A stretch of DNA of 56,404 nucleotides, filler included, from Bipalium vagum (lineage: Eukaryota), in the NCBI GenBank assembly GCA_037834085.1. It is 3 parts of 3 records of this genome, joined end to end, with 100 filler letters (N's around TTAATTAATTAA, not from the genome) between each part and the next. Parts side by side here need not be neighbours in the genome. Positions count along the whole stretch, not along the records: positions 40,773 to 56,404 come from JBBMKC010154733.1; 2 more parts are not named here. One strand, written 5' to 3'. Position 1 is the first letter of the stretch; every line of letters starts with the position of its first letter. A model generated the notes under the pieces. The model was given only the letters and a program-made list of their open reading frames with translations. It had not been told where the DNA came from and searched no databases. This document shows, in pieces, positions 6,401-51,054 of the stretch. Position numbers and translations under genes: made by a program.

Positions 6401-8033
6401 ATTAAAACAATCTCTATTCCCAATATTCCACCTCACATTTGGAACATTACAAAATGCCTGTTGACTTATCGAAAATATCGACCTTCATTACCGATGGTAA
6501 AATGAATAAAAATCGGTGAAAAACATATTTTTGTGGGAAAAAAATCAATATTTTGTAAAAAAAATCAATTGAGTGTTTCGGATTCCAATGAGAAAAATAT
6601 TGAAGAAAGAGAAAAAATTTTCCTTGGCATAATTGAAGTAATGAAAGTAATGGCTTTAATCACCTTGAACAGGAAAACTTTACCGTGGTCAATTACGGGA
6701 ATTGAACTGAATAATAAAGTCTTCGTCCAAAAATATATCTAAATTGACTTAATGAAATTCTCCAATTTAGAGATTTGATAAATTTTTCTTATGAAAATGA
6801 CAATTATGAAGAATATTTATTTATTTATTTATTTATATTTGTATATAAGGCATGAGAAAAATATTATTTATATTAAACATACCAGAAATTAATGATCCTC
6901 AACACAAAATAAACTTATTTATCTTGAAAACAAGTTTTGTTTTAATTGTCGAAATTATGGATAACAACAATTTTGATGTCACAGTGGAATAATAATTGTT
7001 TGTCACTGGTCTCCCCTGGAAAAGTCAAGTATTACTATGAATGGTATCAGGGAGACTGAACCAGTAGGGAAAAGTGTCACTATGGTTCTGGGTATGATTT
7101 TCGTCAATTTATTTTTCAATCGGTTTTTGATGATTAAAACAAAAGATTTGTCTCGAAAAATTGATCATCATCACTCCTCGTTCAGGTCATTATCCCAATT
7201 ATTCCGGCTTATGGAAAACGTGTGTTCCAATCAATCATACCTGTACTTATACCTTTCCTTTTACCCAAACGGAAAACGGTAGGGTTGATGTGATATCATT
7301 GGTGGTGAAAGTGAATGATTGCTTTCATTTTGTTAGGTTATCGAGACAGTATCCTTTGCCTGGTGGCTGTATCCAGCATTTTCAGTATCGGTGGCAGTGG
7401 TTTCTCTTTCACTGGACTCTGTGTTACAGCACTGGCTAGAAAATTATACTATTATCATTCAGCGGGCGAAATATTTTTTGTCTCAGGTAGGAAATTTTTC
7501 AATGTCAACTTTGGAACGATAATTGATTTTGTTTCATTTTCCCTTGCCTGCCCCTCCCCCACCTTTCAGGTATGACAATGACTCTGGCAGTCTCATTGTA
7601 TTCGATAACCGTTGAATTTCATTTGAAGTTCAATAAACATCGTTACGGTTACACATTTTGGCTGGCCTGGCTATCTGCTGCTCTTCTATTGGTATCTGCT
7701 CTCAATCTGCTAATGGACGAATTGATCCAAGGCTCAACGAAACTCCGTGGTTGCTCTTGTCTTGCCAAATGTGTCCGATCTTGCTGCTGTAAACGGTCAC
7801 GGTCATTGGAACACAGATCCAACATGTATCATGAATCAGATCAGTCCCATTTCATCAGACATAACAACAGTAGAAAAAGCCAACACCGACGTCCGGCGAA
7901 AGTGCAGCACAATCGGAACGATTTAGGCATTTCTCAAATTCAAAACAAAATCGGCGGCAGTTCCAAAGCCGCCGCTACCGCCGCCGATCATCTGATGATG
8001 ATCGAGAACGATATCGAGGAGGACTTTGTATAG
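405..8033 (+). CDS. Claudin/PMP22-superfamily four-transmembrane protein (spliced)
   Basis: Core exons 5197-5386, 7186-7278, 7337-7486 and 7570-8033 are joined by phase-1 GT-AG introns. They encode TM1 (WALCFSLLAVSLQIFVGL), the W..GLWKTC..C claudin signature, TM2/TM3, YGYTFWLAW before TM4 and a Cys-rich tail. Upstream exons 405-474 (ATG) and 568-923 are phase-compatible but less certain. AATAAA at ~8459. Confidence 0.8.
1497..1676 (-). mobile_element. tRNA-LTR TRIM copy with deleted 5' LTR: PPT plus intact 3' LTR (1497-1612)
   Basis: The minus strand reads TGTGAG, partial internal region, PPT AAAAAAGAGGGA, then TGTGAGATAAAC...tRNA-like...CTAACA. Perfect 5-bp flanking duplication AGTCA at 1492-1496 and 1677-1681. 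Confidence 0.8.
1900..2140 (-). mobile_element. Possible piggyBac-like transposase relic
   Basis: Broken frames give CGLKIC...KYCFHMQNNGK and SLPTDVVLRQL, resembling the piggyBac KYGIKI..GY..YLGK and PTDVVLRL motifs. Confidence 0.35.
3700..4750 (+). mobile_element. 3' fragment of a restriction-like-endonuclease non-LTR retrotransposon (R2/R4/NeSL-type)
   Basis: ORF 3969-4388 has the CCHC knuckle CRRCHSETHVLQVC, the RHD-like GHD and the PD-(D/E)xK motifs VDL...VDLKCP...KY. Decayed; boundaries approximate. Confidence 0.75.
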
Positions 8034-11631: not shown

Positions 11632-12154
11632 ATGGTAAAATATTTCTATACAAGAAAATATTAATGAATTTTATGTAACTTCATAGTCTGATATTGAAGA
11701 AACATTTGAAAATACTAATTCTGGTGCTTCCGTCACTGTCCCGCAACAAATGAGTGCTTTCCGAAAGAATCATCATATAATGATAAAAGATAGACCTTGC
11801 AAAATAGTTGAAATGAGTACCTCAAAAACTGGTAAACATGGCAGTGCAAAAGTTCACGTTGTAGGAATAGATATATTTACCGGAAAAAAATACGAAGACA
11901 TTTGTCCATCAACGGCTAATAAGGATAAACCAATTGTGAATCGTGTTGAATATCAATTAATTGATATTTCAAGCGATAATTTTGTAAGCTTATTAAATGA
12001 TAAAGGGGATACAAAAGAAGACGTCAAGCTACCAGACAACGAATTGGCCGATGAAGTCAAGACGAAGTTTGAAAGTGGAGACAGTTGTATTGTAACAATC
12101 ATGTCAGCCTGTGGAGAAGAGCAAATTGTAGGATGTAAGGTCTTGACCAACTAG
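11632..12154 (+). CDS. EIF5A: Eukaryotic translation factor 5A (156 aa)
   Basis: ATG-only exon 11632-11634, 52-nt GT-AG intron, then exon 11687-12154: MSDIEETFENTNSGASVTVP...RPCKIVEMSTSKTGKHGSAKVHVVGIDIFTGKKYEDICPST. The hypusine lysine is intact. AATAAA at 12175. Confidence 0.95.
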
Positions 12155-26500: not shown

Positions 26501-29500
26501 TATAACAAAATAGAGAAATAAATCAAATTTTATTTAGAAAATGTTTTTTAAAAAACATCTTCCACTCGTATGTCAGCTAGAAGATTCTTGGAAATTGTCC
26601 AACCGAAGCGAGCACTAGTTTGTGGTCAGAGAGGGAGAATTGAATTTGTAAACATTTTTTGTCGTCTTAGTCTGATACAAGGAAACTTACCGAAGGACCG
26701 ATTTTGGTCTGTATAAATTACTCAATTTTTTTCATTGATTTTGAGCTCCCCATTGACAAAAAACAAGATTAATTTTTTCTGTAAGCGATACTTCAATCCT
26801 CAAACTAAGATTCTAATTGTTTTTGAAGTTTGAGAGATCATATTTATTAATTACAGAGAGTAATTTATTCGTCTAAAAACACTTTAAAAGAGAACTGAGC
26901 ACCATATTATCTTTGTTTCCTGCTTTTTGACTTTTGTGATAATTAAGACCTTAGGATTTTTGGAGCTTTAAAGATTAAAATTTCAGTTAAAATTCTGACA
27001 TAAAGACTTAAGTAAAAAAGTTTTTCGTTTTCAATTTAAACTTTAAATTTATAAAAAATGAATTAACAGTGACTCCTGTAAACGATTTTTATTATTTCAT
27101 TTTATTAAAACTTTTTCAAATGAAAAAAAGTGTTAAATCAAATTGATTTCGAATATTGTGATAATCCTTTTTTCTAATTTAACCTTCAAAACGTTCTCGT
27201 CTCGATTGACTTATTTGCAAATATTTTGTGTTGATCTCAATTCTACATATGCATTGTTATTAATATTGAAAACTCTGTAACTATAAAAATATAGATAAAA
27301 ACGCAAAAATAATTTACAATCAATAAAAATATTTTTTTAATATTTCGATGTAGGCCCTGATGAAAAAAACTCAGGAACCTAATTATTACAGTTAAAAAAA
27401 ACAGAAAAATTTTAATAATATTTTATTTAAAATAATAATTATAAAATAATAGTATTATGTATAAAATAAATATGTATAAATAGTAATATGTAAAAAAATT
27501 ATGAAATTTAATTAAAAATGAATATTAAATAATTTGACTAAACTTTAATGAGTTTTAATAAAAATGAGATTCTAATTTGGGTTCGAGATCCTAAAATAAA
27601 CCTTAAAACTTATACAAAAATAATAAAAAAAATTATTAACATAATTTATCAATGTTAAAATTTAACCTTCTTCACATTTTTACTTAATTAATCGAATTTT
27701 ATTTTACCTCTCAATATTATACAAAAATAGTCAATTAAAACAAAAAAAAACTCACCGAATTCACTGTCCGTTTCAAAGTCACTTTCATTTTGAAAATCTA
27801 ATGATTTACAAATAATGGATGGATATATAAAAAATTATTGAAATTAATAAATCAATGTAATTTTATTTTTTTGTTAATTACAATTATTGATTAATAATTT
27901 TCTCTATTTATATCACTACACGAGTTTGATTTTGAGATTTTTTAAAAATATTTTTTATTATTTTCTTTTGTTAATAAAATATTTTAGATCTTCGAAGAAT
28001 TACATAATTTTCTTTTTTTTCCTTAGTAACTCTTATAATCTTACATATTGAATAAAAAATAAGATTGGATTTATCAATAAGAAATATATTAATATTATAT
28101 ACAACATTAAATATATTTACAGTAAATAATACAACAAATATATTAAAACGAACGTAATATTTAAACAAGGAAATATTATTAAAAAGATTATTTATTTTGA
28201 GTTTGAAAATAAGCAAGAAAATCTGCTTATATCTTTCCCAAAATCAGATTTTACAAAGAGTATATTTGCATGGAGGTTCATTAAAAATAATCCACATTTC
28301 TCTAAGATAAGTCTAACATAAAAGAAGAAAAATTTTAAGGACAAGAATAAAGATTTTTCAGAGACAAATGCAAAAAAAAATAAAATTATTGTGGTCTTTC
28401 TTAAACTGGTTCTGCAATATTTCTGATTTTAAATTGTTATGAAACATGTTTATTTCATAAGACAAAACATCTTTAATAACCGACACATGGAATTTAAAAA
28501 TCCATAAAATGTATTTTGGACATGAATAATAAATTTTTTCCAAGAATTTATTAAAGAACAGCTTCTGTTAAGAAAAGCAAGAAATAGTTAAAATTTTATG
28601 TACAAAATTTAGTGAAATGAAGATTATCTGAATTCCAGGTTTAATAAACAGAATAATAATAATAATGAAAAAATACCAAAATATCTTTATTAATTATTTT
28701 TATCCATCAAAATATTAATGACATACTGGTAGAAATATCCCGGTATTATGTATTTTTATACCTTTGGAGAGTATTTTGGTCATTCATTAAAATTGTTTTA
28801 ATTATTCAAAATATTACAGGATAATGCTTGAATTATCAGATTGTGTAAAACTAATGTCGGTTTTATGGAATAATATTTTAGTTGAATATTAATCGACACC
28901 ATCTTTAAGTTAATAAAATAATCTTTGTGTATTTAATTTAAATACAATTAAAGTTATTAGTTAGTTTTGTTTTACCAATCTAAATTGATTATTGATTATT
29001 CTAGACAAATTTGAAATGACCATGAATTCTGAGAAAATTAGAATATGTATGTATTATGAGTTTAAGCTGAACCATTCCGCAGCCCAGAAGACCCGTAACA
29101 TCATACAAGCATTTGGCGAGGACAGTGTTACAGAACGTATGGTTCACCGTTGGTATGTCCGTTTTCGTTACGGAGATTTTGGACTTGAAGATAAACCTCG
29201 TGAAGATATACCACGTTTAATAGCTCTTGACGATGAAGTTTTGAAAGAGCAGATTGAATCTGATCTCTCCGAAACAGTAAGTGAACTTGCTAAAATTCTC
29301 AATATTCATCCTGAGATCATTTCAAATCAATTTCATCAAATTGGTATAATATGGAAACATGATTGGTGGGTTCCACATAAATTAAGTGAAAAGAACAAAT
29401 CTCAGCGTCTGAGTATCTGCACTTCTTTGGACTACCCAACAACAGTTAACATTTTTTGAACAGAATTATCACCAGTGATGAGAAGTGATGACAACTCTTG

Positions 29501-32500
29501 TCGCTCTGGACAATGACTTGATGCGAGTGAGCCTACAGGGAAAGTGGCAAAAGAAGACATTCATTCCAAGAAGATAATGGTAAGTGTCTGGTGGTCCATG
29601 TCTGGTGTAATCTATTTTGAGTTTTTAAAATGAGATCTAACCATAACATCTGATGTCCACTGCTTGATAAAGTTCATAAAATCCTTAAAATTCAGCAACC
29701 ATCATTGGTCAACAGAAAATTTACAATTCTTCTCCAAGATAATACAAGACTTCACACGTCAAAATTAACTGTACAAAAATTGAAAGACTTCGGTTACGAA
29801 ACTCTTCCTCGATCTTACTTATTCACCCTTCAGGTTTCCATTTATTCAGGTCTTTGTCAAACTTTCTTACAGGCAAGTCTTTTAAAAAATTTTCAAGACA
29901 AGGCGAATTCATTATTCAAAAATTTATTAATTAAGAATTAAGAATTCATTAATTCCAAAAATCAGAAAATTTACAAATCAGGAATTGAAATGCTACTGGA
30001 ACGTTGGATCAATGTTATAAAATCAGATGGTGACTATTTAAATGAATAAATTTTATTTTATGACTTAATTATTTTTGTTCAAAGTTTTTTTCATAAAACC
30101 GAAATTACTTTTTACACAACCTGATATTAAAAAAACAAATAAAAAGGGGCGTATTTAAATAAAATATACCTGGAATACAAAGCCCAAGAAAAGAATAGGT
30201 GGATTGTTTACATAGTTATTAATAATAACTTAGTATGAAAAAACAATGGTTATATCATAAAAGATAAAGAAAATTTCATAATACAAGTCTCAATATGGAT
30301 TAGATGAATTTTGTACACATCGTTTTATTATATATATTATCATTTATCATTAATATATGTTTAATATCACATATACAATTACTTTATTAAATTTATTAAT
30401 ATTACTAATAATAATATTATTATTATTACTATTAAAGACATAATCATTATTACTACTCTAATAAAATGAAATAGCTAACTAAATAAAAATATAAACGACA
30501 TTTAGAGAAAGTTGGTGAGATTAAAAAGAAAAATAAAATACTGTTGTCGACAACATCTTTCTTAAACTCATGCAACAATAAAAATATATACCTTTTACAA
30601 AACAGATTTTTTGAGATTTAGAAGAATCTGACAAAAAGAAATTGTAAACCAAACATAAGATATTGAATGAAATATTAAATATTCCTTCCTTTTTCGTAAC
30701 AAGTAATGTGAAGAAATTTTGGATGAATTAAATCTAACAACCCCATTGCTATTTTGGCTTTTAACATTGTGGCTTTCTACATCGTTGTCTCATCACATGC
30801 GTGGTTTGACCGGGACCATCTAATTTTTTGGGATGGGATATTCAATATTATTTGATCTGTGAAATTAGAAAATTCCAAAGTGTAATGTAGACTGAAGCCG
30901 ATACCTGGCATTCTTGTTTAATTTCAGTAAACCATTTCCACAATCTTAAATGGTATTGTGAATTCGCATTCATCACGAAATTTTTTATGTGTAATTAACT
31001 CTTATCTCATTAGCCATACCACTTATCACCTGTTACTAATGCAAAATTGTCCAAAATTCTATTCTCGAAAATAGGCCTTTTTTCATAAACTCTCAACTCT
31101 AACTAGTTTTATATAAGATATTGATGTACAGAGGAATTTGACACTTAGTTAATTTTCACAATATTTATGTCACGTAGAGAAACACAAGATTTATTTTTTA
31201 TTCGTCTCTCAAACGAGACCAATCTCCAGTTGACCACTAACCTTTGTGTAAAACTATGATTTAACAAGGTTCAGAGCCATCAAAAGCCATTAAAAGTTCA
31301 ATATGGAAAAAAGTATTTATATTTCCATATTTTACATATTGGGTAGTCTAAAAAGTTTCCAGCGATTTTGTGAATAGGCGGCGAAATTATTTTAAAAATA
31401 AATATCCTAAATTCATTTTTTCTTGACTTTTTAAAATAAGTTGAATTTCTTTTAACTGAAATCTCTTGATCATCTATGGAATGTTTATTAACTAGAATGC
31501 ATTGTATTAAAATAATTGAATGGCGAACTGGCAAAATTATATTCCATCGGCATAATCTAACTTTTTCATGACAAGGTTGAGTTTGTTTTACACATTGACA
31601 AGTTCAAACAGTCACTTGATTATTTCAAAAATAAATATTTCAATCTCAAATTTCTTTCAAATTATAAAAAAAAATTAACTTGCGATAATAGCAATACCAG
31701 GATTTATTATGATTTTCGACGAGCATTATCTCAACAGTACATTAATTAACGTATTTCAACTTATCAATGATTTAAAGAATCTAATAGTGGTCATAGGTCG
31801 TTGATAAGTAGTGTTTTGAGCTTACAAAAATTCGAACCTACGAGTCGATTGCAAATTGACATCAACTAGAAATAAAGTAAAAGATGACATCAAGGAAATA
31901 TATAATACACTTAATGAATTCATAAAGATTTAGTCTAGAATTTAATCAGCAAGCTACAGATGATTTTAGTAAACTATATCAAATATGGAAAAGTTCATGA
32001 AAAAAAATGTATAGAAAAACCATAAAAAAGACAATTTTTAATTAAGATAACACTTAAACACCATTTAAATTCAATTATGAGTTTAATGAGATAGATTTAA
32101 TCTTCACCCCCATTTCTTTATCGTTTAAAACTGTTTTTATATTATTTTATTATATTATTAAATTCTCACAATTTTATTGCTTTTTTATCGACTATTTCTT
32201 AAAAATAACTCCAATAAAATATCAATTTTATTAAAATAAAAAATTAAATTTTACAAAGTATAAAAATGGTTTCAAGTTTCATAATTTAATTTCAATTAAC
32301 ATTTTGAAATAATTCTCTTTAAACCTCATTATTTCGGATCTTTATTTTCAATAACAAAAATTTATTTAAGAAAATCACATCTCTTTCGAGGAAAATTTGC
32401 ATCACGCACCAACATCCACGTGTTTCTTGTTTATTTAGCAGTCATCTTCATCGGTTTAGATATTGAGTAGCAGCGGCCTTTCGGCTACCGAGATCCCAAC

Positions 32501-35500: not shown

Positions 35501-38500
35501 CGTGTTTACTGGCTGAAGAACTGACCAACCTGGCTTTTTCAGTACGAAGAGTGCGATAAGTGGACCAAAACGTCGGTTCAATATGAAAAAAATTTCTATT
35601 TTCGAAATATTATACCATGACATTTGTAAAATGTTTTATAGTCTAATGACCCTACACTTGTCCAATGTAAATAAAACGTTTGTATAAAAAGAATGAATCT
35701 TATATTTTATCAGAATTAACTGTAAAATGTTACTTTGAACTTCGAAAATCTAAAACAACGTCCAACTTGTGAAATAAGTTATGATATATATTAATAAGAT
35801 TAAATTAAAAAAATATATTAAAGTTAATTACACATAGATAATAAAAGTTATACATGGAATATAAGACATTTTTTGGAAAGATATTTTTTGCTAAGTATCA
35901 CTTGAGACTCGATTAACATACTGTGACAAATTGTCATATTGCCAAATGCAGTATTGTTTTAATCTTTACAATAAAATAAAAATCAATTTATTTTCCAAAG
36001 ATATTGCTAGCCAAAATAGTAGCCCATTATATTTTGTCATCTTGTAAATTCCTATTAAGAATTAAATGCTGAATTGTAAAAATCCACTTATGCCTTATTC
36101 TATTTGAAAGCTTGCTTAAATTATACTTCGTAATCATTCCGTAAACGGCGTACTACATCATCCCACAAGTGTTCAAATGGGAACAAGTCAGTGGTGAATC
36201 TTGCGGGGTATGGAAGAACTTCAATTACATTTAATTTCGACATCACAATTCTGGCTTTATGAGAGCAGACATTGCCCTGTTGTAACGTCAGATGATTCTC
36301 TTCAACAACTGAAAAGGCCTGTAGCAGGACAATTTCATTTAAATAGTGTTTTCCTGTCACCGTACCTGGAATAACAATATTTTCTGTGCGACTATTCCAC
36401 AACATCGATCCACATCATTAAACTGTCTGTTTCATGACAATCGTGTTTTAAAATACAGTAATCGATATAGTTGTATTTTCAATCTTCTATCTCAATAATG
36501 CCATCATGAAAATCTAGCGAAAGTATGTCTATCAATATTGCCTTCTTTCCAATATCTGTCCCATCATTTTTGAACGGTCCTTTTTGACATTCCTATTCTT
36601 TTTGTGACATCCCACAGTCCGAGATCTATCTCCAATAGGTCACACAAGCATCCTTTGTGGAATTGTGATATTTGAGCCATATTCTTAACTGACATGTGAA
36701 TAAAAAACCAAAAAAACCGCAACGTAATACATATTAATCGGAAGCATTATTTTATTTTAAAATTGATAATATGTTTATAATGAGCAACTTTTTTTGGCCA
36801 CCAATATATTTAAAGAAAAATAAACACTAACATACAAAGTAAAATATCAATTTAAAATATTTACAGATTAATAATATTTATTAAAAAGCATAAATAGCAA
36901 TCGATAAAACGAAACATCATACTTATATCAACTGAGTTGAGTTCGTCAGAGACGGTGTTGTCTAGTTCTTGAGGTCTAGGGATAAATAAATAATAATAAA
37001 GTGAAATAATAACATATCTAATATTAAAACAAAATTCCAAAGGATAAAAATAGATCCGATAATAAATTATCTTAAAAAGTTAAATATTAATCATTACAAG
37101 TATGAATTTTCGTTTCCCATTTCTCTTGAAAAACACCGAAAGCAGAAATCTTTTTAAAATATACACAAAAGAAAGATAAGAGCAAAGTTAAGAAACGTAA
37201 AATAATTCCATCCGGAAGTAACACAAAAAAAATCGGATGTTTTTTAATCAGTTAAGATTAGTCTCAAAGTCAAAATAATTTACTTCACGAAACCTATTAT
37301 CATTTGAGTAGAAATTCAGGGAATTCATTGTGAGTGGCAATTGAACAAAATCCAGATCTCAAAGTTTACTATTTCACGCGACTGGTATTATTATGAGAAA
37401 ATATTTATTTATTTATATTTTATAAATTTTAGAGCTCTGCTGATGAAAATATTCTCAATAAATTTAATTCTTGTACAACACTCTTTAAAGATTTATTTTC
37501 AATTAAGTATTTAATTCAAATAAAAGAAAAAGGTTCAAAGACTGTTCTAAAATATTTTTGTTCCATGTAGGGCAAAGTCTAACACTGATAAGACTATTAA
37601 AATTTATTCTTACTAATTTGGATTTGCAAATCTCTATTTATATTTCAACATAAATAGATTCTATTTGAACCATTAAAGGAATTAAATATTAATTAAAAAG
37701 ATAATAATTAAAAATTACGAGGATTGTCTTTTAAGTTTTGCATATGGATGCATACAAGCCTACAATAATAAAATATTATGTAAAACAAGTCTATATTTAG
37801 ATACTAAGAATTATAAATTTTGTTTAAATATATCAAAGTCTTTGTTTATAGCAACTATTTAAAAAACATAATCAATGAAAAAAAATTGAATTCACGAGAG
37901 AAAATGTAGGAGCAATAATCGTGTACAATTTTCGAAGAGAATTATCTCAGGAACAATGTAGATCCGAAATGATATCAGTTCTTGGGGATGAAGCACTATA
38001 TTATTCAGCAATTTCCCGCTCTAGTCTAACCGATGAGCGGAGAATATGAAAAATTCGCTGGTGTAAATCAGCATATCTTGAAAGATCGACATGCAATATA
38101 TTTTGAGATAGAGTGTTCCTTGGGTATTTCAAAGACCTCATTGCATAAAACCCTGCATGAAGAACTGAATGTGAGGAAATTAGTTTCCCTTAGATCCCAC
38201 ATCTCCTAACTGATGAACAAAAAGTAGCTCGAATCAATTGGTGCCGAATAACCTTGCATAGATTCAACAACGGAAGCTCCAAAAATGTGCACAACATTAT
38301 CAGTAATGACAAATCATGGATTTATTCGTACGAGCCTGAAAAGAAAAGTCAATCTTGTATTTGGGTGTTCCAATCTGAGGAGAATCCGACAAAAGTTACC
38401 CGATCTCGTAGTGTGTCAAAGCAGATGAACGCAACGTTTGTCTCAAAAGTTGATCATAATGCTACAATTCCTTTACAAAATCGAAAAACGGTTACTGTGC

Positions 38501-40247
38501 AATGGTATACAGCAATATATTTTCCAGAAATATTTTCAGTTATCCGAAGAGCAAACATGAAATGGAGAATCATTCTTCACCACGAAAATGCTAGTTCACA
38601 TACAGATCTAGTAACAACAGATTTTTTATCATCTCAAAATATAGAATTATTGGGTCATCCAACATATAGTCCTGACCTAAGTCCAAATGATCTTTTCACA
38701 TTTCCAAACATCAAGAAAAAACAAGTCACCGGAAAAGGCAATCGACATGTTCAAAATGGAAATTTTGGGTGTTACAACTGATGAGTGGAATAACTGCTTT
38801 AACAATTGGTTTCAAAAAATGAAAAAGTGTATAAATCTTTGTGGAGAATATTTTGAAAAAGTAATAAAATATTTTCAATCTTTTTTGTCTCTGCAAAAGA
38901 CAACTCTCGTATAATTCAAACAGTTCTTCTTTCGAAAATGAAAATTATTATAATCGTCATTATGTTCAATTTTTGTAGTAGGTTATAGTATCGGGTGGAT
39001 ATAAAAACTCGTCTGATAAAATGTGACAGGGTTGTATTAGTATTATATGGGTGACCTAAAATATATTGCATAATAAAGGCGATAATTGATGTAATAAAAT
39101 AAGCTCTTGATTGTCGGTAAGTTTTTACAATAAATTTTTATGTATGACCTTTTTAATAAGAATCTGGATTATATCATTCCATGTTATTCCAGTGGGTACC
39201 TTTGTTGCAAAGATACCGTATTGATGATTGAAAATTGAAAATTTCAAAATTCCAAAACACCAATTCCCTTGTAGATAAAAACCCACAAACTCTTGGAAAA
39301 TTTCCAAGATTTTGATACTGGGAATTCACTTAACCAGTGTAATTAATTTTATCTAAACTATTTTTGAGGTTTTGGGAATATATTTGTGAGGTTTACACAT
39401 AATGATTGAATTTTATGTAACGGGCTTTTGTCTGCAGATGTATGACCAAGCTTAATAATTCGTTCACTTCATCACTTATATCAAAACATATTTGAAAGTG
39501 AGAAGAAGAAAATCTAATTCTTCAACTATTAATGAAGACCCATGGGATACGAACAGATAGTGTAAAAAGCAATGTAAAAGACAAGCTTCGCAAATATTTA
39601 TCAAAACAATTAAATAGGGCCCGTGGATAAAAATCATAATTTCCATAAAGAAAATATCACTGATATTGATAATTCAATAAGTGTAATCGAAAAACACTTT
39701 TAACAGCCACCCTTAAAGATTTTAAAAGCTAAAATACTGCACTACTGCCATTGATAGTAATAACAATAACAAAAATAAAAAAATAATAAATAACAAGAAT
39801 AAGAACAATAAATAATTTAATTTATTTTCAATTATCATTGCTTACTTATCCGCTAGGTTAAGCTCAATAGGATATTCTCGGTTTTCTTTCACAATATCTG
39901 AGACACATTCTGGTATGGTTTTTTCTGAAGTTAGAATGAAATTTTTCTATGAATAACAGAGATAATTTCCGAACCTTTCCATTCATTTAATAAAGTCTGT
40001 TCCAGTAAATCTAGGTCGTAATTATCCACCTGTGCGTATCGCTTATAAACTGGATCATTATTGGTTTCAGGAGGTGATTTGAGAATTCTTCCGATGGAAT
40101 GTTTCGGGAGAGAGATAACGTTGCCAATCCCAGAAAATTTCAATCTTTCTAATAAATCTGCGTGAGTCTTGAAAATATCCGTATATCTCTCGTACAGCTT
40201 CTGATATTCCTTTTTGTGTTCTTTTTCTTTTTCTTCCATTCTATTTA
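17537..40247 (-). CDS. MAPK8IP3: JIP3/JIP4 (Sunday driver/UNC-16) JNK-interacting motor adaptor, internal part only
   Basis: Nine phase-consistent exons: 40247-39975 ([27 protein letters not shown]), 39924-39846, 36975-36923, 27797-27756, 24671-24614 ([20 protein letters not shown]), 24553-24497 ([18 protein letters not shown]), 20438-20282 (leucine zipper II), 17847-17669 (RH2: [38 protein letters not shown]) and 17617-17537. The RH1 N-terminus and WD40 C-terminus are not in this contig. Confidence 0.92.
18140..18610 (+). mobile_element. Mariner transposase relic (C-terminal part)
   Basis: Fragments resembling KILLSV.WD...VHYELL, LHDNA and W..VI.HNGEY. Confidence 0.6.
25606..25900 (+). mobile_element. 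Near-complete tRNA-LTR TRIM: LTR, PBS, 129-bp internal region, PPT, truncated LTR
   Basis: LTR1 25606-25718 (TGTGAGA...TAACA). PBS-like TGACGACTACATCAGGA follows immediately. PPT AAAAGAGGGGAA at 25836-25847 abuts LTR2, which starts TATGAGATAAATT at 25848 and is truncated at ~25900. Confidence 0.8.
26400..26660 (+). mobile_element. Possible Ginger/Gypsy-type integrase relic
   Basis: Broken frames give VCQLE and [18 protein letters not shown], resembling the end of the H2C2 finger and the KPI....RGQVDLID integrase start. Confidence 0.35.
28836..30124 (+). mobile_element. Full-length mariner (DD34D) transposon with disrupted transposase
   Basis: TA-flanked ~28-bp TIRs TCAG(G/A)TTGTGTAAAA..TAAT.TCGGTTTT, 1289 bp long. 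HTH, WVPHKL, IITSDEK and LLQDNTRLH motifs, with stops and frameshifts. Confidence 0.93.
36002..36806 (-). mobile_element. Internally deleted Tc1-family element
   Basis: Degenerate TIRs TATTGGTGGCCAAAA..AGT.GC.CATT. ORF 36121-36405 has [12 protein letters not shown] and [15 protein letters not shown]. Confidence 0.78.
37718..38909 (+). mobile_element. Mariner transposon (irritans-like), disrupted
   Basis: TA-CGAG..TTGTCTTTT termini. [30 protein letters not shown] and [12 protein letters not shown] motifs. Confidence 0.9.
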
Positions 40248-40672
40248 CTATCAGTAAAAGTTAGCATTAGCAATGGATGGAACACAGTTGGATGAATTGT
40301 GTTAAAACAATATTTATTAAATAATTCTCTAAATATTATTTTATTTAAAAATAAGTTTAATAAATTAAAAATATAATATATTAATAATAATAATAAATAA
40401 TAAATAATAATAAAAATTCAAATTCCAAAGATTAAATATTTTCTGATTTATGAAAAAGTAAGAAATGATTTTAAGCGAATTTTGAAAGCAAATATTACGA
40501 TAAATATTGTTCAGTTGGAAAAAAATATATTTTAGAAAAATAAGTAATTTTTATAATTGATTAATTTTAATTGTTCTTAAATTACTGGCTTTTATTAAAA
40601 AGTTGCATTATGCGAAACAAACTACTTAAGATTAAATTATTTTTAATTTTTATTTATGTTATTTTTAAACAA

Positions 40673-40772
40673 NNNNNNNNNNNNNNNNNNNNNNNNNNNN
40701 NNNNNNNNNNNNNNNNTTAATTAATTAANNNNNNNNNNNNNNNNNNNNNNNNNNNNNNNNNNNNNNNNNNNN
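40673..40772. other. Artificial contig linker
   Basis: N44-TTAATTAATTAA-N44. Confidence 0.95.
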
Positions 40773-41009: not shown

Positions 41010-41543
41010 CAGGGTGGCTCAAAAAAAATGTATACACACTTAAAATAATAATAAATCAGAAGTTTAATGAAATGCATTTTATTTCAAAATTGAATACAAT
41101 CTTTTGAGATTCCTAGCTCAAGACTTGCTTATCTCACATATGTATGTGGGCGTCGATTAAACAAGTACAACATTCTTTCTTCCTTTGTGGTACTTGTCGA
41201 TATTCTCCGTCTTCCAGAACGGTTCTTGTTGACATTAATAATTCCATCTTTTTCGAATTTATCATTTATTCAACTGATTGCCAGTCTTGTTGATGGATCT
41301 ATCTGAAATTCTTGAACAGGGTCTGTACCTCTTATGTTTTCTAACTTGAAGTAATCTTTGATAATAATTTTTCGCTGCTCAAAGTTCTACCTACCTTTTA
41401 TGATTCAACATTTAAGAATAAATTTATTGATTTAATATAGCGGCAATTTCTTAACAGTTATTGGAGTATTTAAACAAACTATAAAACAAGTAATAAAAAC
41501 TTATAATTACTTAACGATTTATATTTAAAGATGAGACACCCTG
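41010..41543 (-). mobile_element. Deletion derivative of a Tc1/Tc3-like element
   Basis: TA-CAGGGTG...CACCCTG-TA termini. Retains N-terminal HTH remnants (FEQRKIIIK, RINDKFEKDG, RSGRRR). Confidence 0.75.
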
Positions 41544-41559
41544 TATATACCGCTTTTTA

Positions 41560-42847
41560 ACCTTTAGAATTTTATTGTTTACATAATATGAGCGCCATTT
41601 AATTTCTGTGCGAATATTTTGAAAGAATGTAATTAGATAATTTTTCTTAAATATTGATTATATAGATAAATATGAACATCACAAAGGAGCATCTGAGATG
41701 CATAATGCACTACTCCTTTCGGACGGAAGAAAAGACAACTCTTACAGCTCATTCCATATGTAATGTTTATGGAGGTGTAATATCTGAACGAGCGTTGTGG
41801 TATTGGTTCCAGAAATTTTGTTCTAGTGAAACATCGATAAATGACGCCACCCGGTCAGGTAGACCCACTGCCATTGACGATGATGTTTTAAATGAGTTGG
41901 TAACACCCAACCATAGATTGACATGTCAGAAAATTGCTAAGGAGGAGAGGCTTTGTGAGGAAACTGAATTGTTGAATTCCGCATACAATCTCAGAACGTC
42001 ATTTGATTGTCCGCATTAATATCTGCGAATCATAGTTAAAAAGGAATGAATTTGAGTCATTTTTGAAACAGATGATAAGAAGAGGTAAAAAGTGGATCTT
42101 ATATTGTAATGTTACGAGAAAAAGATCTTGGATAAAAAGGAGTGAACCACCATTAGCTTCACCAAAGGCGGGATTACGTCTCAAAAAGTAATACTTATTT
42201 ATGGTGGAATTGGAAAGGTCCCTTCTATTATGTTCTACTTCCGACAAACGAAACAATAAATTCCAAGGTTTACTGTAACCAACTGAAAAATTTACAGGCT
42301 GCTATTGTAGAAAAGCGACATTATTTGGCGATTAGAAAAGGTGTTGTATTCCATTATGTCAATTCCAGACCCATACATCAATGATCACCAGGAAGAAGCT
42401 GAAGGAGTTTGACTGGGAGGTTTTGCAGCATCCTGCGAATTTCCCAGATCTTGCACCTTCCGATTATCATCTGTTTAGATCTGTGAGATATGTTGAAAAT
42501 TAGTCGGGGGATGTAGCTCAGCGGTCAGAGCAGTCCATGCGCATGTGAAGGTTAAAAATCGTTCGAATCCCGGTATCTTTCATTAATTTTCACTAACAAG
42601 ATCGTTACAAAACTCACTCAGGATCAGATTTTCAGTAATGTAAAAGATGAAAAGTTTCACTTGAAAGAGTTTTTAAATTCCAGGAAAAATGATTTTCGGA
42701 AATCCGGAATTTTTTCCATTCCAAATAGATGAAAAGAGACCGTAAAAAATGATGGTAGTTATATTTTGTATTGAATATGTATTTTCAATTTGTGAACTTT
42801 TGAATTTTTTTTAAAAAGACGGAAAACAACTATCCGGTTCACCCAAA
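41560..42847 (+). mobile_element. Mariner transposon, disrupted and interrupted by a solo LTR
   Basis: MNITKEHLR..HTH..RSGRP, KWILYCN and HPANFPDLAPSDYHLFRS|LQNSL motifs. Right TIR-like end near 42820-42847; left end approximate. Confidence 0.85.
42482..42598 (+). mobile_element. Solo tRNA-Ala-derived LTR (117 bp)
   Basis: TGTGAGA...CTAACA with perfect 5-bp TSD AGATC (42477-42481 and 42599-42603). Removing the element and one TSD restores mariner DYHLFRSLQNSL. A box TAGCTCAGCGG and B box GTTCGAATCC present. Confidence 0.9.
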
Positions 42848-42934
42848 AATCAAAATAAATAATAAAACTAAATAAAATTAAAAAAAATAATTAGAAAAAG
42901 AAAGAAATAATATTAAAAATTAATTTTAATTCAG

Positions 42935-45900
42935 TGAAAAATTTGTTAATCACAATGGGTCATGTTTTAATCTTTCCGTACAACTTCTGACCCCTTCGTT
43001 ACATCTAAAATTGACTGTGGAGAATGATCTCGGTAATGCCTCGTTCAACTTTACTATAAACCGAACAAAAATTTTGAAACCCTTAAGTCCTGAACTAACT
43101 CTCACGGCTAAAACAGCAACCGACTTGACCCTTATTATCCGTATGCCAGATGATGGAGACTTCATTGTGAATTATAGCTGTTCTTCCAGAAGCCCCAAAA
43201 ATTTATTTCAGGTGACTGCTTTCCTTTCATTGTTAATGAATTTTTCTTCTATCAATAAAATTTTTGAAAATGCGACTGCGGAGGACCCATGATTGGGATT
43301 GGATAAAGTCACGATTTTTTATTTGAAATGATCCATTTTTAAACTTACGATCTCTGATTTGAATACAATCTAAACCGATTCGTTGTCTGATCAATTTATA
43401 GAATTCGTTTTGAGTTAATGAACAAAAATTTGCCAGAGTGAAAACCGCTTTTTAAATTTGTTTTAAAATTATATGACTTGTTTGGGAACAGATTTATGGT
43501 CTACCACCATAATTGCTGAGAAACTGTTAGTTTAGGTCATATTAAATATTTAAAATTAAACTAAACCAAAAGGTTTAATATCCACTGTGAGTATTTAAAG
43601 TGATTTTTAAAATTTTTTAATTTTTATATTGTGCATAATTTAAATTTGTAATTAATTGTAAATTTAATTTTAATATTTATTTAATTTAATTTTGTATATT
43701 TATTTTAAAATAATTTTTATTGAAATGAATTAGGGCACAATACAGGTTTATGCAGAAATGTATAGAAAATATATTTTAAAAATATATAAATCTATTCAAA
43801 ATTTATAGAAAATTATTCAGAAATATATTGAAAAAAAATTCGATTTTTTCTATTTAAATTTGATCACATTTTAGTCAGCCAAAAATATCAGCTGCACGAT
43901 TACTATTAAAATGTCAGGTTTCATTGTTTTGTCATCTGTTTTTTATTAAATCAAATTTACAGGCATTTTTTGCTTCGAAATCAAAGACGGGTCTTTCAAT
44001 GGACTTTATTAGTGACAAGCTATGCAATGATTTCGGTCGAAATCCTGGGGATGTATTGATGATGGACAATTGCAGGTTCCATCACCACAAAGATGTTATT
44101 ATATTGTTAACAGAACGAGGTATTCCTTACAGATTTTTGTCACCATACTCGCCTCAGCTACAATTCGCAAATACTGTATCATCATTTATGGGAACCATTA
44201 TAGATCGGGACGATTGATTACTCAAGTACTCATGCATAACGATATAGATATAAGTGATTATTTTCGCAACATGAGGCGGTTTACAGAAAAACCTTGGCGA
44301 GACAATAATTTATTTAGTGTACATTTCCATTATATATTTCTGTATAACCCTGTATATTAATTTATTAAGAATTGAAAATTTGTCTAACTATTATTATTTT
44401 AAAAACACATTCAAAAATGAACTGTATCTTTAGAATTATGACTGATTTTGTTGATATTGCAGCTGATATCCATAATTTTTTGGTACTTATTTGGAATAGA
44501 ATGAAAATTTTGATAAATTGAACCAATTAAATATACAGAGTGTCCCAAAGGTAATTGTACAGTTACTTAAATAAAAATTAGATGTCAAAAAGAAATAACT
44601 AAATAGGTATATATAGTTTTTTTATAAATGTACAGAATATCCACTATAATACTGAGACATACTTTCTGGCAAGTTTTCTTACAAATATGGTTCCACTCGT
44701 TCCACTAGAAGATTTAGAGCAAATGAGGTTTTATTTAAACAACATAGTCTCTATTTGCACGAATCACATCTTTACAATATGGATGCAACCGCTGTAATCA
44801 TGAACAAAGCGTTCTCGTTGGATGGTACGGAATAAGCGCAACGACTCTGTGTTTCTTTCTTTTTAAGATCCTTCTTCAGATAAAGAAATATCCATCGATC
44901 TACCAAATAAAAGTCTGGATTATATACTGATGACGGATGAGAGTAACTTGACTTCGTACAAAAAACTGTTGTGTTGCTGCCGCTGAATTTGGAAATACAT
45001 TGTCATGCTGCCACCACAGTTGATTCAGTCGTGTTGGTGATGATCGAAGAGTTTTCCATTTCTTTCCAGTTCGATGAACAAAAGAGACGTACTCTTTTGT
45101 TGTCACTGTTTGACCAGGGTGGAAGGCTTCTGTGTGCATTTCCCATCACCTGTGAACGCAAGAAGGAACAATTTCTTTTTATTCGTCTACTTGGGCAAAA
45201 CCAACTAAAAATAGGCCAGCATTCTAAGAGATTGTCTTTGGTTTTCATCCAGAGAATGTTTGACAAATGCCACGTTCTCCTCTGTGGTTGCAGTTAAGGG
45301 TCTCCCAATTCTGTGTTGGTCATAGTAGGATATTCAACTTCCATCAATTAAATCTTCCCACCAACGGAATATGGTTGCACGTGAGAGAACGTTACTTAAA
45401 TGAGTATCCAACAGTTGCTGATTCAAATCAGTTGTGGCTCGTCCACGCTTCATCTCCAAAAAGACAATAGCGCGATAATATTCTTTTTTCAAATCCATTT
45501 CACTAAATCAGTGCATTAATTAATTATTGTAAGAAACAATAGTTTATATAGACTCAAGTGTGTATCTGTGTAAGGCCTTCTTTAATTGATCAATTCTTTC
45601 ATGGATTTGTGATTGGTCAAAAGCAATTTCATTATTATAAAAATAGATTTCCAAGAATGGAATACGTAATCCCATTACTTTTTAGACACACCAAATACTT
45701 TAGTTAAGTTGATTAATTGTCCTAGGCTTATTAGATATAAACAACGTTCTTTAGAACTCCCCATAGAAAAAAAATCATGTGATGTCATATCCAAGGATCT
45801 GGCAGGCTATTCGATTGGTTCTCGACGTCCAATCCAACTTCCAGGAAACGCTTCATCAAGCCATTGTAGAAAATCTTTGATGTAATGCGCAGGTAGGTGT

Positions 45901-48900
45901 TCCATCTAGTTGAAAATGAAGATTACCGAAATTGGAGAACTCATTAACAATAAGGAAACACCGTATTAAGGTAACGTCCACCATTAACAGTTCCTTTAAA
46001 GAAGAATAGGCCAACTAGGCCAGTGAAACGGATTCAAGCCCAGACTGTGACTACAGGAACATTGACTTCTGTTTCAATAATACTAAGGGGATTCACTCTG
46101 TCCCAATAAATACACTTGTGTCTGTTAAGATACCCATGCAATCTGGAAAATCTTTTAATTCTTCACAAAACTTTCAAGAATCAGAGTCCAGCAGCGCATG
46201 AGGAACAAAAATCAAGCAATTGCGTCAGAGCAAGATCATTAAGGTCACGACAGCAAAGGTCATTCCAAAGACTACTATTCGCAGAAGGAAATGAATAGTA
46301 ACGAAGATAGCATAAAAGAAGAACTTACATTAATCGTTTTTGATATCTAATTTCGGTTAAAGTCTAATCTATCTATATCTGAAAATTTCTTAATAAATCC
46401 TCAGTCTTAAATAAAAAATTGCCAATTCTTAATTCTAAAGGACCATTATTGACTTTAAGAGTTACAAAAGTGAAGAAATTCAAGTTTTAACTCTCAACCA
46501 AGCACAGCTAATATGCGAATCAATAGAGCGAGAGAATAACAGAAAAAATAATAATTAAAACGAAAAATCAAAATAGAAAGCCGACGTTATCTATGTGAAA
46601 ATCTAAATATATAGGCACAGTACAATTATTTTTAATGTTCTTAATTAACAAGAGAACAATTAAAACAATTTCATCATAAGATGTTTGAAATTGTAAAAAA
46701 ATAATCAATAATTATTGAAAAAATCGATACTAGACATTGATTTGAAAAACTTTTTTACTGAGATTTCTTTGATTAAATTTGACAAATTTGTTTTTTATCT
46801 TTACAAAAGTTAAAACTGAAATTTTTTCACTTTCTTGCAACTGTACAAAGTAATAACGGTCTTCTAAAATCAAAAGAGTTGGCATGTTTTATTGCCCACT
46901 GAAGATTTGTTTACAAAATTGGATATATTTCATGGGCTGAATTTTTTAAAGTAAGTTAGCCAATCAAAATTATCATACACTGCCAAATGAATACCATCTT
47001 TTCTAACATAAAATCCGTAAAATAAATTAAATTACCATACCATCAGATTTTCAAATTTTTATTTTAAAATTTATTGATTAAGTCTTATTATTTAAATATC
47101 GATTAAATTAATTATTATTTTATAGAGGGCTCCATAAAAATGTCGTTTTTTAAAAAAAAGTATTTAGCGACATAAAGATGCATAATAATGATATATTGTA
47201 TATACTGTACTAATTATTTTAGTATTTTGTTTTTTATAAAACGAAATTTTTTATGGATCTCTTTATATTATTATATAAAAATTAAACTATTTTACCCATA
47301 AGTCATGCTCTTTTTCATTGTTTTATAAACTACAAACATTTCGATAAATTCTCCTTCATTCTGTACACTTCTTTCCGATCATTTTGGTAAACTTGCAATA
47401 CATCTGAAGAAATCCTGTACAATTCCTTTAGTTTTGACTCAAAGAACTTGTTTAGTACCGTTTTTACCTCAACTATAGTTTCCTTGATAACCCTTTCAAA
47501 TAGTTTTGCAGATTCCAAAACAAGTGTTAGCATAATGAGGCAATATCGGACGAATACGGTGGATGAGTCAGTATTTCCCATTCTGAGGTTCTTAGTTCTT
47601 CTCTGTTAACCAAAGCTTGTCGTTTTTCTTTTAGAGTAATCCAAATGACGAATTTGATTACAATAAATAGTATTGGTTTTTTTAGGGGATTTATAAAATA
47701 ATTCCATTCATATCCCACTAAACATTAATAAAAATTTTCGTTGAAAGCCTCTTGGCTGAGATATTTGACTTTCCCATGGACTGATCCATCTTATAATACT
47801 TTGTCATTAGGTCATTTTCTGATACATCGTGTGGTAACCATTGTCTAAGTCTGGAAACCTAATAAATAATTTTCAGGCACAGATGGTAGATTTTATTGAA
47901 TCGAGTATCCCAGCTGATTTTTAAACGGTTACAACTGGATTTATCTGCCACCTTTAATAAATCTTTATCGGATTCCATTGGTCAACTAGATCGATTTGAA
48001 TCCTGTAGATTGTAGTTCCGGGATCGAAAATTTTTAAACCATCGTTTTGATTGACTTACACTGATCGTTGATTTTCCATATACTTTGCATATATTTTTGT
48101 TGCATCTGTCGCGTTATTGTGTTTATTATTATTTTCGAACTGCAAAATATGTCGAATATGATCCTATTTCAAGTACTTTGAAAAAAAGTACCGAGTACCA
48201 GAGAAAATTTTAATATTACAAATATTAAAATATTATTATGTGAATGTGGAAGAAGTTCCCAATTAAAATCTTTAATTTTCTGTACAGTTATCTTTGCCGA
48301 ATGTGGTCGAGCATTATTGTGATGAAATAAAATTTTTCGTCTAGTCACTAATTTTGGACGCTTTTCAATTAAGGCTGAATGCAAACGTGATAGTTGTTGA
48401 CAATATAATTCTGCATTGATTGTTCTATTGGGATCTAATAATTCCCTATGGATGACATCACATATGTCCCACCAGAGAGACATAAGGATCTTCTTCGGGT
48501 GCAATCATGCTCTTGCTTTTGGTGAATCCGGCTTATCTGCATCGACCCACTGCATACCTTGCCTATTTCTTTTAAGTGTCGGAATATGGTGCCATGAGAT
48601 GATTTAAGTCTTCTTGAAATTTCATCCACTGTTAGTTCCAGTTCGGAATCCAAAACAGACTTCAGAGCATCATTCTGGAACTTGACTGGGCGTCCTAAAC
48701 GTGGTTCATCGCTAACATTGTTTCTCCCATCTTTAAAATTTTTAAACCATTTCTGTGCCATCCTTATACTGACTTTATTTTCATCATGAACTGCATTAAT
48801 TTTCTTTGATGCAGTACTTGCATTTTCCCCACTCATAAACAAAAAGTGCAGAATATGCCGTTTGTATTCATTGGTAATTTCCATTCTAAAAGTATTTATT

Positions 48901-51054
48901 ATAGTCTGGTGATTAAAAATTTAGTCAAATCCTTACCACGTGATCGAAGATTAAAAATGATTTATTAAAACAAGTTTTATTTAAATCTCATTAGTTTTTT
49001 AATGAAGAATCAAAGATATAATGCAATACGCACGAATTTATGGACTGACCTGCACTGTAATAAAAAAATAGAATTAATAAAATCCTCTTCGACATTAAAC
49101 TTTAAAATTGCTTCCACATTAAACGCGAGTGTAGATTTATAAAAATTAACGTGAATTATTTAATTATTATATTACAGCTGGGGTGCTGATGTATTTTGTA
49201 AAATCTGGTGCTTTAGTGATATCCGTGTTTTATAAATGACAGTCATACAGTGACTCTGTGAATCATTTCACTGAATTTAATTAAACAAATTTATTTTAAG
49301 CAGGTAAACATTCGAAATTGGAGTTATAAAGTATGAATCTTTAATCGAAAATTGTCGTTCGATGGTTTCGTATGAATTCCAATGTGATCTTACATTAAGC
49401 AATGTTTAGATCGACTTTATTTAGGTTTTCGGAATGCAGCATCATCAACGACCTGCGTTTTGCAGAATTCCAGTGTGGTCGCACAAGTCTGGAGAACGAA
49501 TTTAGTGAGGACCGTCCGTCAATATCCGCTCCTGCAGCTGATATTGATGATGTGCATGAAATGATTGAAAGAGAACGACATATCACATACTGTGAAATTG
49601 AGGCATCCGTTGGTATTGGCATGAAAGCTATTGAAACTATTTACACCAGCATTTATATGTATATATGGAGGCCTTGCAGTCGTTGGATGCACCGTAATTT
49701 GACATCTACTGAAAAAAATATACTGTAAAATGATTCAAAAAATGTTCCCTAAATTTAACAGAGGTCGTTCAAATTTAATTTACAATATCGTCACCGGTGA
49801 TGAAAAATGAATTTATTCGGGTGATTCTAAAAGAAACCAACAATCCAATATTTGTGTGTCGATCCAAACTAAAAAATGTTATTCAGTCCAGCAGTGCTGC
49901 ATTTTTTGTGTTTAAAAGAACGTGCGACGGTTATAATTAATGGCACATATCCCGTATTCACCTGTGTTATCATCTTGTCATCAATAAAACATTTTCGTCA
50001 TCTGAAGCAGTGTTATTGAAAAATTTGAAGTATTGGTATTTGTAGTGTCAACTTTAGAATGGAAAACCTGTCTCGAAAATTGGTTCGATCACATGCAAAA
50101 GTATCCTGACTTGAAAGACGATTATTTCGGAAATTATGAAGTACTGAATTTTGGGCTTGTTCCCCACAAGCGCTGGATTCCACAAACGTCCCCAGCAGCC
50201 ATCTTATAAATTAAATTATATAATGAACTAAAATAAAAGGTCAAAAACCGTTGTTGGAGGTGATGATTGCAGCTAGATTTTCGTTTTTGTGGCAATAATG
50301 TTTGTGAGATAAATTGAAAATTAGTCGGTGGATGTAGCTCAGCGGTCAGAGCAGTCCATGCACACGTGAAGGTCAAAAATCGTTCGAATCCCGTATCTCC
50401 CATTAATTTTCAACTAACAGTGTTAATTAACCAAAACAAAGACCCTGTTGATGTTGTCGAACGATTTTAATCTCTTATACGATATATCAGAGAAAATTTC
50501 TCATGTTGACAGTCCTTTATCATTTTTACAGTCAGACAAGATCAACATTTTTGATCGGGTCACAGAGATCAGTTTGGCAGGCTGGAAGCCTCATTCCGAA
50601 GTGATTTGCACTGCAGAAAGTCAGGTCGTGTTACATAACCTTGGAATCGGAAACTTCAGTGGTCCGTCGAGTTCCTCTTTGACCATGCCACAAAGCTGTG
50701 AGTCTTCTTTATTATTAAATTTAATTTCTAGCTAAGCAAATGACAAAGTTCTAAACGGGACAAAGAATCCCAAACATTGTTTTCGTTAATGTATCTGCAG
50801 ATGTGTACCAGTACCTCCGAGAGTCAATTTATCTTTAATGGTCATTTAAGTATATTAAGAATTGTGACCTGAGTGTTGATTGAATGAAAACAATTTAAGG
50901 AGAAGACAAGAATAAAACCCGTAGTAACTTTCCGAACAACCGATCATTTACCCACACAACTTGACAAGAGAAAGAGAGGAGTTATGGTGGTAAAGGAAAT
51001 GACAAAGGTTGTCTCTTCAGTTTGCGGTTGGAGAATGAAGACATTTAATAAACA

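Follow-up and report, generated by a model that had tools for sequence, protein, structure and literature searches.

Which kind of element interrupts a decayed mariner copy of Bipalium vagum, and whose integrase put it there, is the question raised by a 117-bp repeat flanked by two copies of AGATC. The window, by which we mean the whole stretch of DNA analyzed (56,404 nucleotides, filler included, assembly GCA_037834085.1), joins three parts. The 100-base gaps between them (15553-15652 and 40673-40772) consist of 44 N, TTAATTAATTAA and 44 N, a non-biological linker with stops in all frames.

An insertion in a decayed mariner copy

The host of the insertion is a mariner copy at 41560-42845 (plus strand, ends approximate), delimited with Pfam, reading frames and sister copies. 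It carries stops and frameshifts and still matches HTH_48 (E 2e-10) and Transposase_1 (E 4e-12) in a Pfam search. The inserted repeat, with TG…CA ends, occupies 42482-42598 (plus strand); about 25 bp precede its tRNA-like core and a T4 run stands near its 3′ end. The original prediction held that AGATC was duplicated exactly around this element, and direct reading of the sequence together with a duplication-length test bore this out: the copies at 42477-42481 and 42599-42603 (both plus strand) agree at 5/5 positions for a length of 5, and lengths of 3, 4, 6 and 7 fail with 0-1 matches. Two 5-mers lying 122 bp apart in the window agree by chance with a probability of 0.0032 when exact and 0.035 when at most one mismatch is allowed. 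It had also been claimed that the insertion splits the mariner codons for FRSL, so that the empty site can be reconstructed. When the element was excised together with k bases (k = 0-8), only k = 5 yielded …APSDYHLFRSLQNSL, and the mariner motif SDYHLFRSL was regained by the 5-bp duplication alone, as expected from this claim; the mariner frame is also intact at removal lengths 2 and 8, with one residue gained or lost.

The ends and the abundance of the repeat were followed in the contigs of one public sequencing run (X1), which is possibly the window's own source and thus not independent of it. There, 3035 records matched positions 41540-42860. The matches of 221 contigs end at 42482 and those of 40 more at 42481, and the sequences beyond are unrelated (agreement 0.44-0.46), which fixes the 5′ end of the LTR independently of the duplication. 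Summed depth over the LTR reached 4e4-2.6e5, where single listed contigs have 17-35; this depth, which is not a copy number and to which true tRNA genes may contribute, marks a very abundant repeat. Pattern scans for further copies returned 0 in metagenome contigs (two scans) and 0 in viral contigs, collections that are unlikely to hold this animal.

Sister mariners in X1 are about 85% alike and span the host copy. One sister contig aligns over 42160-42481, halts exactly there and never enters the element, and three further ones depart at 42475 into other sequence. As the sister copies appear to lack the element, the insertion postdates this mariner copy, in line with the relative age first proposed. 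Alignment of sister mariners had been put forward to confirm the empty site, and it did so in part: the contig that halts at 42481 speaks for it, and the empty-site joint itself was absent from the rows listed (15 of 59 X1 joint rows). The empty site is thus supported by sister copies, though not by direct sighting. Also supported is an integrase-type insertion of the 42482-42598 element into a pre-existing mariner copy.

Copies of the element and its architecture

A BLAST search of the window recovered five family copies, at 42482-42598, 50303-50419, 25606-25718, 25848-25900 (a 53-bp piece) and 1497-1612 (minus strand), the whole copies being 77-93% identical over aligned columns. All four whole LTRs have TG…CA ends; their A box lies at position 32-33, their B box at 74-79 and their single T4 at 101-106, and the tRNA-like part begins at LTR position 25-26. 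In the 42482 copy, this degenerate tRNA-Ala-like core spans 42507-42582 (plus strand, 3′ limit approximate), with the A box at 42514-42524, CGC at the anticodon position (42540-42542) in an unpaired stem, and the B box at 42560-42569; the T4 run at 42587-42590 (plus strand) is a putative Pol III terminator.

The Rfam tRNA model gave 17.8 bits (E 0.16) for the 42482 copy and 17.4 for another, under a gathering score of 29, and returned no row for the third of the 3 copies scanned. Over the whole window, Rfam produced 2 chance rows, neither of them a tRNA, and ARAGORN 0 tRNA genes. The anticodon stem is unpaired and the anticodon differs in each of the four copies (CGC, CAC, TGC and TGT). A functional tRNA gene is ruled out by the unpaired stem, the varying anticodon and the lack of ARAGORN genes, and the core is promoter-like because this stem is unpaired, ARAGORN is empty and the Rfam scores lie below threshold. 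The acceptor start and the CGC and TGC at the anticodon position of two copies would point to a tRNA-Ala origin, an assignment for which we take G3:U70 to be the alanine mark.

The stretch 25606-25900 (plus strand) shows the order LTR-PBS-internal region-PPT-LTR, with the two LTRs in direct orientation and 129 bp apart. Its 5′ LTR (25606-25718, 113 bp), placed by BLAST and alignment, is followed right behind its CA by a PBS-like 17-mer (25719-25735) with TGA instead of the usual TGG and with GGA at positions 15-17. The internal region (25719-25847, 129 bp) is non-coding, purine-rich and free of T4, and ends in a polypurine tract recognized by purine count (25836-25847) that adjoins the 3′ LTR (25848-25900). 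This last LTR begins with TA and is truncated after 53 bp. Because this one stretch holds two LTRs, a PBS-like 17-mer, an internal part and a PPT, it argues for a Helenus-type TRIM. It is the only two-LTR copy seen in the window, and a complete element of this kind would measure about 355-360 bp. Frames scanned over the element copies gave no Pfam match, the element being short and non-coding (113 + 129 bp and the second LTR).

The PBS shape, which was modelled on the tRNA ends shown in PMC10886601, Fig S2 (available in part), and defined after the site was seen, occurs at 134 of 112774 positions; the PPT shape occurs at 640 of 112780. Ahead of both 3′ LTRs 12/14 bases are purines, against 5-8/14 ahead of the other three copies. 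The PBS-like 17-mer, with its one departure from TGG, is a candidate PBS seen in a single copy, and the PBS and the internal region are both known from window copies alone. The primer tRNA would presumably be tRNA-Arg, tRNA-Ser being possible. T4 is also absent from 17% of window stretches and from 92% of the internal region's own shuffles, so that its absence is a weak signal, which we rejected as evidence. The LTR's first bases recur as TGTGAGAT in the internal region at 25826-25833, just 5′ of the PPT, and this copy is not conserved in the homologous 1613-1676 stretch.

The truncated 3′ LTR agrees with the 50303 copy at 47/53 positions and with its own 5′ LTR at 41/52. This disagreement fits an old insertion, as well as a chimera or a misassembly, and a drift of about 10% per LTR in an old insertion fits the pairwise values. 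Since its 3′ LTR is truncated, the two-LTR copy has no testable duplication.

Two other 5-bp duplications, at 1492/1677 and 50298/50420, had been part of the original prediction. Their length stood (5/5 and 4/5), and the unit enclosed by the first proved not to be a solo LTR. This unit, at 1497-1676 (minus strand) with AGTCA on each side (1492-1496 and 1677-1681), comprises the first 6 bp of an LTR (1671-1676), the 3′ part of the internal region, a PPT (1613-1624) and a complete 3′ LTR (1497-1612). The LTR by itself has no duplication (1/5), the AGTCA pair enclosing the whole 180-bp unit, and the internal sequence is homologous to 25719-25847 (0 of 5000 shuffles attain the score). The copy is best read as internally deleted, that is, as a full element that would have lost about 180 bp of its interior and kept both ends.

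The copy at 50303-50419 (plus strand), 108/116 identical to that at 42482, is flanked by ATGTT (50298-50302) and GTGTT (50420-50424). There is no PPT ahead of, and no PBS behind, either the 42482 or the 50303 copy, and duplications are present, which is the appearance expected of solo LTRs. They have in common an A-rich replacement just 5′ of the B box (42555-42560 and 50376-50381). X1 contigs depart from the alignment by the hundreds at this replacement (172, 56 and 73), so that the two solo LTRs form a minor subfamily. Duplications of 5 bp are thus found at all three copies that retain both ends, two exact and one with one mismatch, and a 4-bp duplication fits 0/3 of these sites (the 42482, 1497-1676 and 50303 copies), a count of n = 3 insertions in the window in which the 1497-1676 copy has its outer end set partly by its duplication.

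The 117-bp repeat is, in our view, very probably the solo LTR of a Helenus-type TRIM with a tRNA-Ala-derived Pol III promoter and a borrowed integrase of 5-bp stagger. The ends, the A and B boxes, the order of parts and the 5-bp duplications are directly seen, and the cycle of transcription and mobilisation is what we infer. Pol III would start at the tRNA-like 5′ end inside the 5′ LTR, read past the leaky T4 of this LTR and the T4-free internal part, and end the transcript at the T4 of the 3′ LTR; with such a start and stop, the tRNA-like stretch would be the R region. A helper particle would package and reverse-transcribe the RNA, a host tRNA priming at the PBS and the PPT priming the plus strand. 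The helper integrase would then insert the cDNA and make the 5-bp duplication, here within the FRSL codons of mariner, and recombination between the close LTRs would leave one LTR between the original duplications. The earlier claim that LTR-LTR recombination followed an integrase-type insertion finds support in the two-LTR copy of the window, with its PBS-like and PPT-like signals.

Alternative readings and relation to known TRIMs

Against a clean TRIM reading, the LTR ends form imperfect inverted repeats (11/22 to 15/17), which is MITE-like too. A MITE-like DNA transposon that had captured a tRNA and was mobilised by a Ginger2/TDD-type integrase-related transposase would account for these imperfect terminal and subterminal repeats, and 25606-25900 would then be two neighbouring insertions, for which LTRs just 79% alike could speak. 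We nevertheless consider it unlikely, as a PBS-like 17-mer stands behind one copy, a homologous interior and PPT precede two independent copies, and no duplication flanks the 25606 copy taken alone (1/5). Also, animal Ginger elements have TIRs of 40-270 bp and 4-bp duplications in the available part of PMC2836005, whereas the inverted ends seen here are short and imperfect, not the long TIRs expected of a Ginger2-dependent MITE, and folding is no more stable than that of shuffles in 5/5 stretches (z -1.38 to +1.17).

An ordinary 4-bp Helenus family with a 4-bp Gypsy helper, the three 5-bp cases being a minority class or chance, is very improbable. Such a minority exists in tapeworm ta-TRIMs, where 5/57 duplications are 5 bp and most are 4 bp (PMC4558846, available in part); at that rate, three 5-bp sites out of three would be expected with a probability of about 7e-4, and 0/3 sites fit 4 bp. 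Insertion by target-primed reverse transcription, as a tRNA-derived SINE or a tRNA retropseudogene, would explain the tRNA-like core, the A and B boxes and the T4, but is hardly credible in view of the fixed TG…CA ends common to hundreds of contigs, the constant 5-bp duplication, the 25 bp of conserved sequence ahead of the tRNA start and the absence of a poly(A) or simple-repeat tail.

The favoured reading, a Helenus-type TRIM, agrees with the composition of Helenus elements (tRNA-containing TRIMs, TRIMp3): two short LTRs, a sense, non-functional tRNA-like part and then a T run, a PPT, a non-coding interior, and solo LTRs with duplications; the PBS-like 17-mer would be the counterpart of their PBS. 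Its size of about 355-360 bp is within or near the Helenus range (311-1263 bp in the portion of the source available), and 5 bp at 3/3 sites fits the general Helenus/TRIMp3 range of 4-6 bp. It is unlike animal Helenus as described in having a 5-bp instead of a 4-bp duplication. The 4-bp rule invoked in the original prediction holds in our own count of Table S1 of Kojima 2024 (PMC10886601, available in part), in which duplications are 4 bp in 113/115 animal families, undetermined in 2 and 5 bp in none; because this list has no 5-bp animal family, the difference is real. In the available part of the same source, fungal and plant Helenus have 5 bp, Copia helpers are inferred for fungi, animal Helenus go with Gypsy helpers and are described as having their PBS in common with an autonomous Gypsy of the same genome, the list covers six animal phyla with flatworms absent, and Pol III transcription of Helenus itself is putative (PMC10886601). 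A motif search of the Kojima 2024 supplement found none of four LTR motifs of our element, and its 7-nt PBS start only in two bivalve Ser-primed Helenus families. The PBS-like 10-mer gave no related paper among the literature matches listed.

Ajax, a nemertean TRIMp3, and Cassandra also have a Pol III promoter within the LTR of a TRIM, and Ajax is an animal element with 5-bp duplications. They differ in that their promoter is 5S rRNA-derived, not tRNA-derived, and Ajax primes with tRNA-Leu. The ta-TRIM of taeniid cestodes is likewise an animal TRIM, whose numerous solo LTRs have retained their duplications, and differs by 4-bp duplications in 52/57 cases and a tRNA-Leu PBS, a tRNA-derived promoter not being mentioned in the available part of PMC4558846; its helper was assigned there by common LTR ends, PBS and duplication length. 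No later description of an animal tRNA-TRIM with 5 bp was found in the literature searched, Repbase and subscription journals lying outside this search. What is new is an animal TRIM of Helenus type whose duplications are 5 bp long; since the mechanism is already known, the gain lies in range and helper biology.

This element breaks the published split between animal Helenus (4 bp, Gypsy) and fungal and plant Helenus (5 bp), and it counts as one of the most compact TRIMp3 elements, its LTRs measuring 113-117 bp. Its helper can be traced by a usable signature that combines duplication length with the primer site and the LTR ends. Also, solo LTRs that are tRNA-like and abundant can lead to an excess of annotated tRNAs or SINEs, and they may furnish introns with Pol III promoters.

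Candidate helpers and neighbouring sequences

The original prediction took a 5-bp duplication to mean an independent origin or a different helper integrase. The second half of this alternative stood, as the duplication points to a helper clade other than that of the listed animal Helenus. The first half is not implied: 5 bp alone shows neither an independent origin nor a non-Gypsy helper, since Mag-clade Gypsy elements, and Ajax as well, have 5-bp duplications. In the available part of PMC3286476, the Culex Mag rows give 5 bp in 20/21 cases, LTRs of 119-304 bp and a Ser, Leu or Arg PBS, and Culex Mdg1, Mdg3 and Osvaldo have 4 bp among the rows listed. Mag is also the largest LTR clade in the flatworm Macrostomum (78/137 LTR families; PMC12801592, available in part). 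For BEL/Pao, one Pao element with a 5-bp duplication (PMC3630058) and the presence of BEL/Pao in Schmidtea (PMC3118150) are reported in the parts available, and no PBS types for this group were found in the literature searched.

Our element is like Mag-clade Gypsy in its 5-bp duplications and short LTRs, and the Ser, Leu or Arg primers of Mag would include the primer presumed here; Mag elements are, unlike it, autonomous and coding. Pfam found no autonomous LTR element among 112 open frames of at least 62 aa in the window, so the link to Mag is drawn from these likenesses. A Mag-clade Gypsy helper would have slightly the better of an even chance, a BEL/Pao helper is conceivable at perhaps one chance in a few, a Copia helper is doubtful, and any other helper would be a surprise. 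It is an even question whether tRNA-Ala was captured independently, giving rise in flatworms to an abundant animal tRNA-promoter TRIM that uses a Mag, BEL or Copia 5-bp integrase, 4-bp families maybe coexisting. If true, independent capture with coexisting 4-bp families would offer a natural setting in which to tell helper switching from repeated origin.

The window is dense in decayed Tc1/mariner copies of several families, partly nested and some recognized by eye only, at 16035-16898, 28989-30100, 36124-36746, 37879-38781, 43864-44217, 47333-48920 and 49399-50210. The frames at 17668-17847 and 39934-40260 (both minus strand) resemble what we take to be the RH2 and RH1 regions of JIP3/4; the 39934-40260 frame had no Pfam match and the 17668-17847 frame no homologue. 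Should this assignment hold, introns of that gene would contain the 25606 element together with several mariners. A weak claudin-family match at 7527-8033 (plus strand, E 0.005) falls below the cutoff. A gene for eIF5A (11687-12154, plus strand) and a divergent dynein light chain (12292-12681, minus strand) are arranged tail to tail with about 140 bp between them, and each occupies a single open frame. The eIF5A is 53-67% identical to named metazoans, none of them close, and near its hypusine site it reads GKHGSAKVH and PSTAN, where we presume the usual forms to be GKHGHAKVH and PSTHN.
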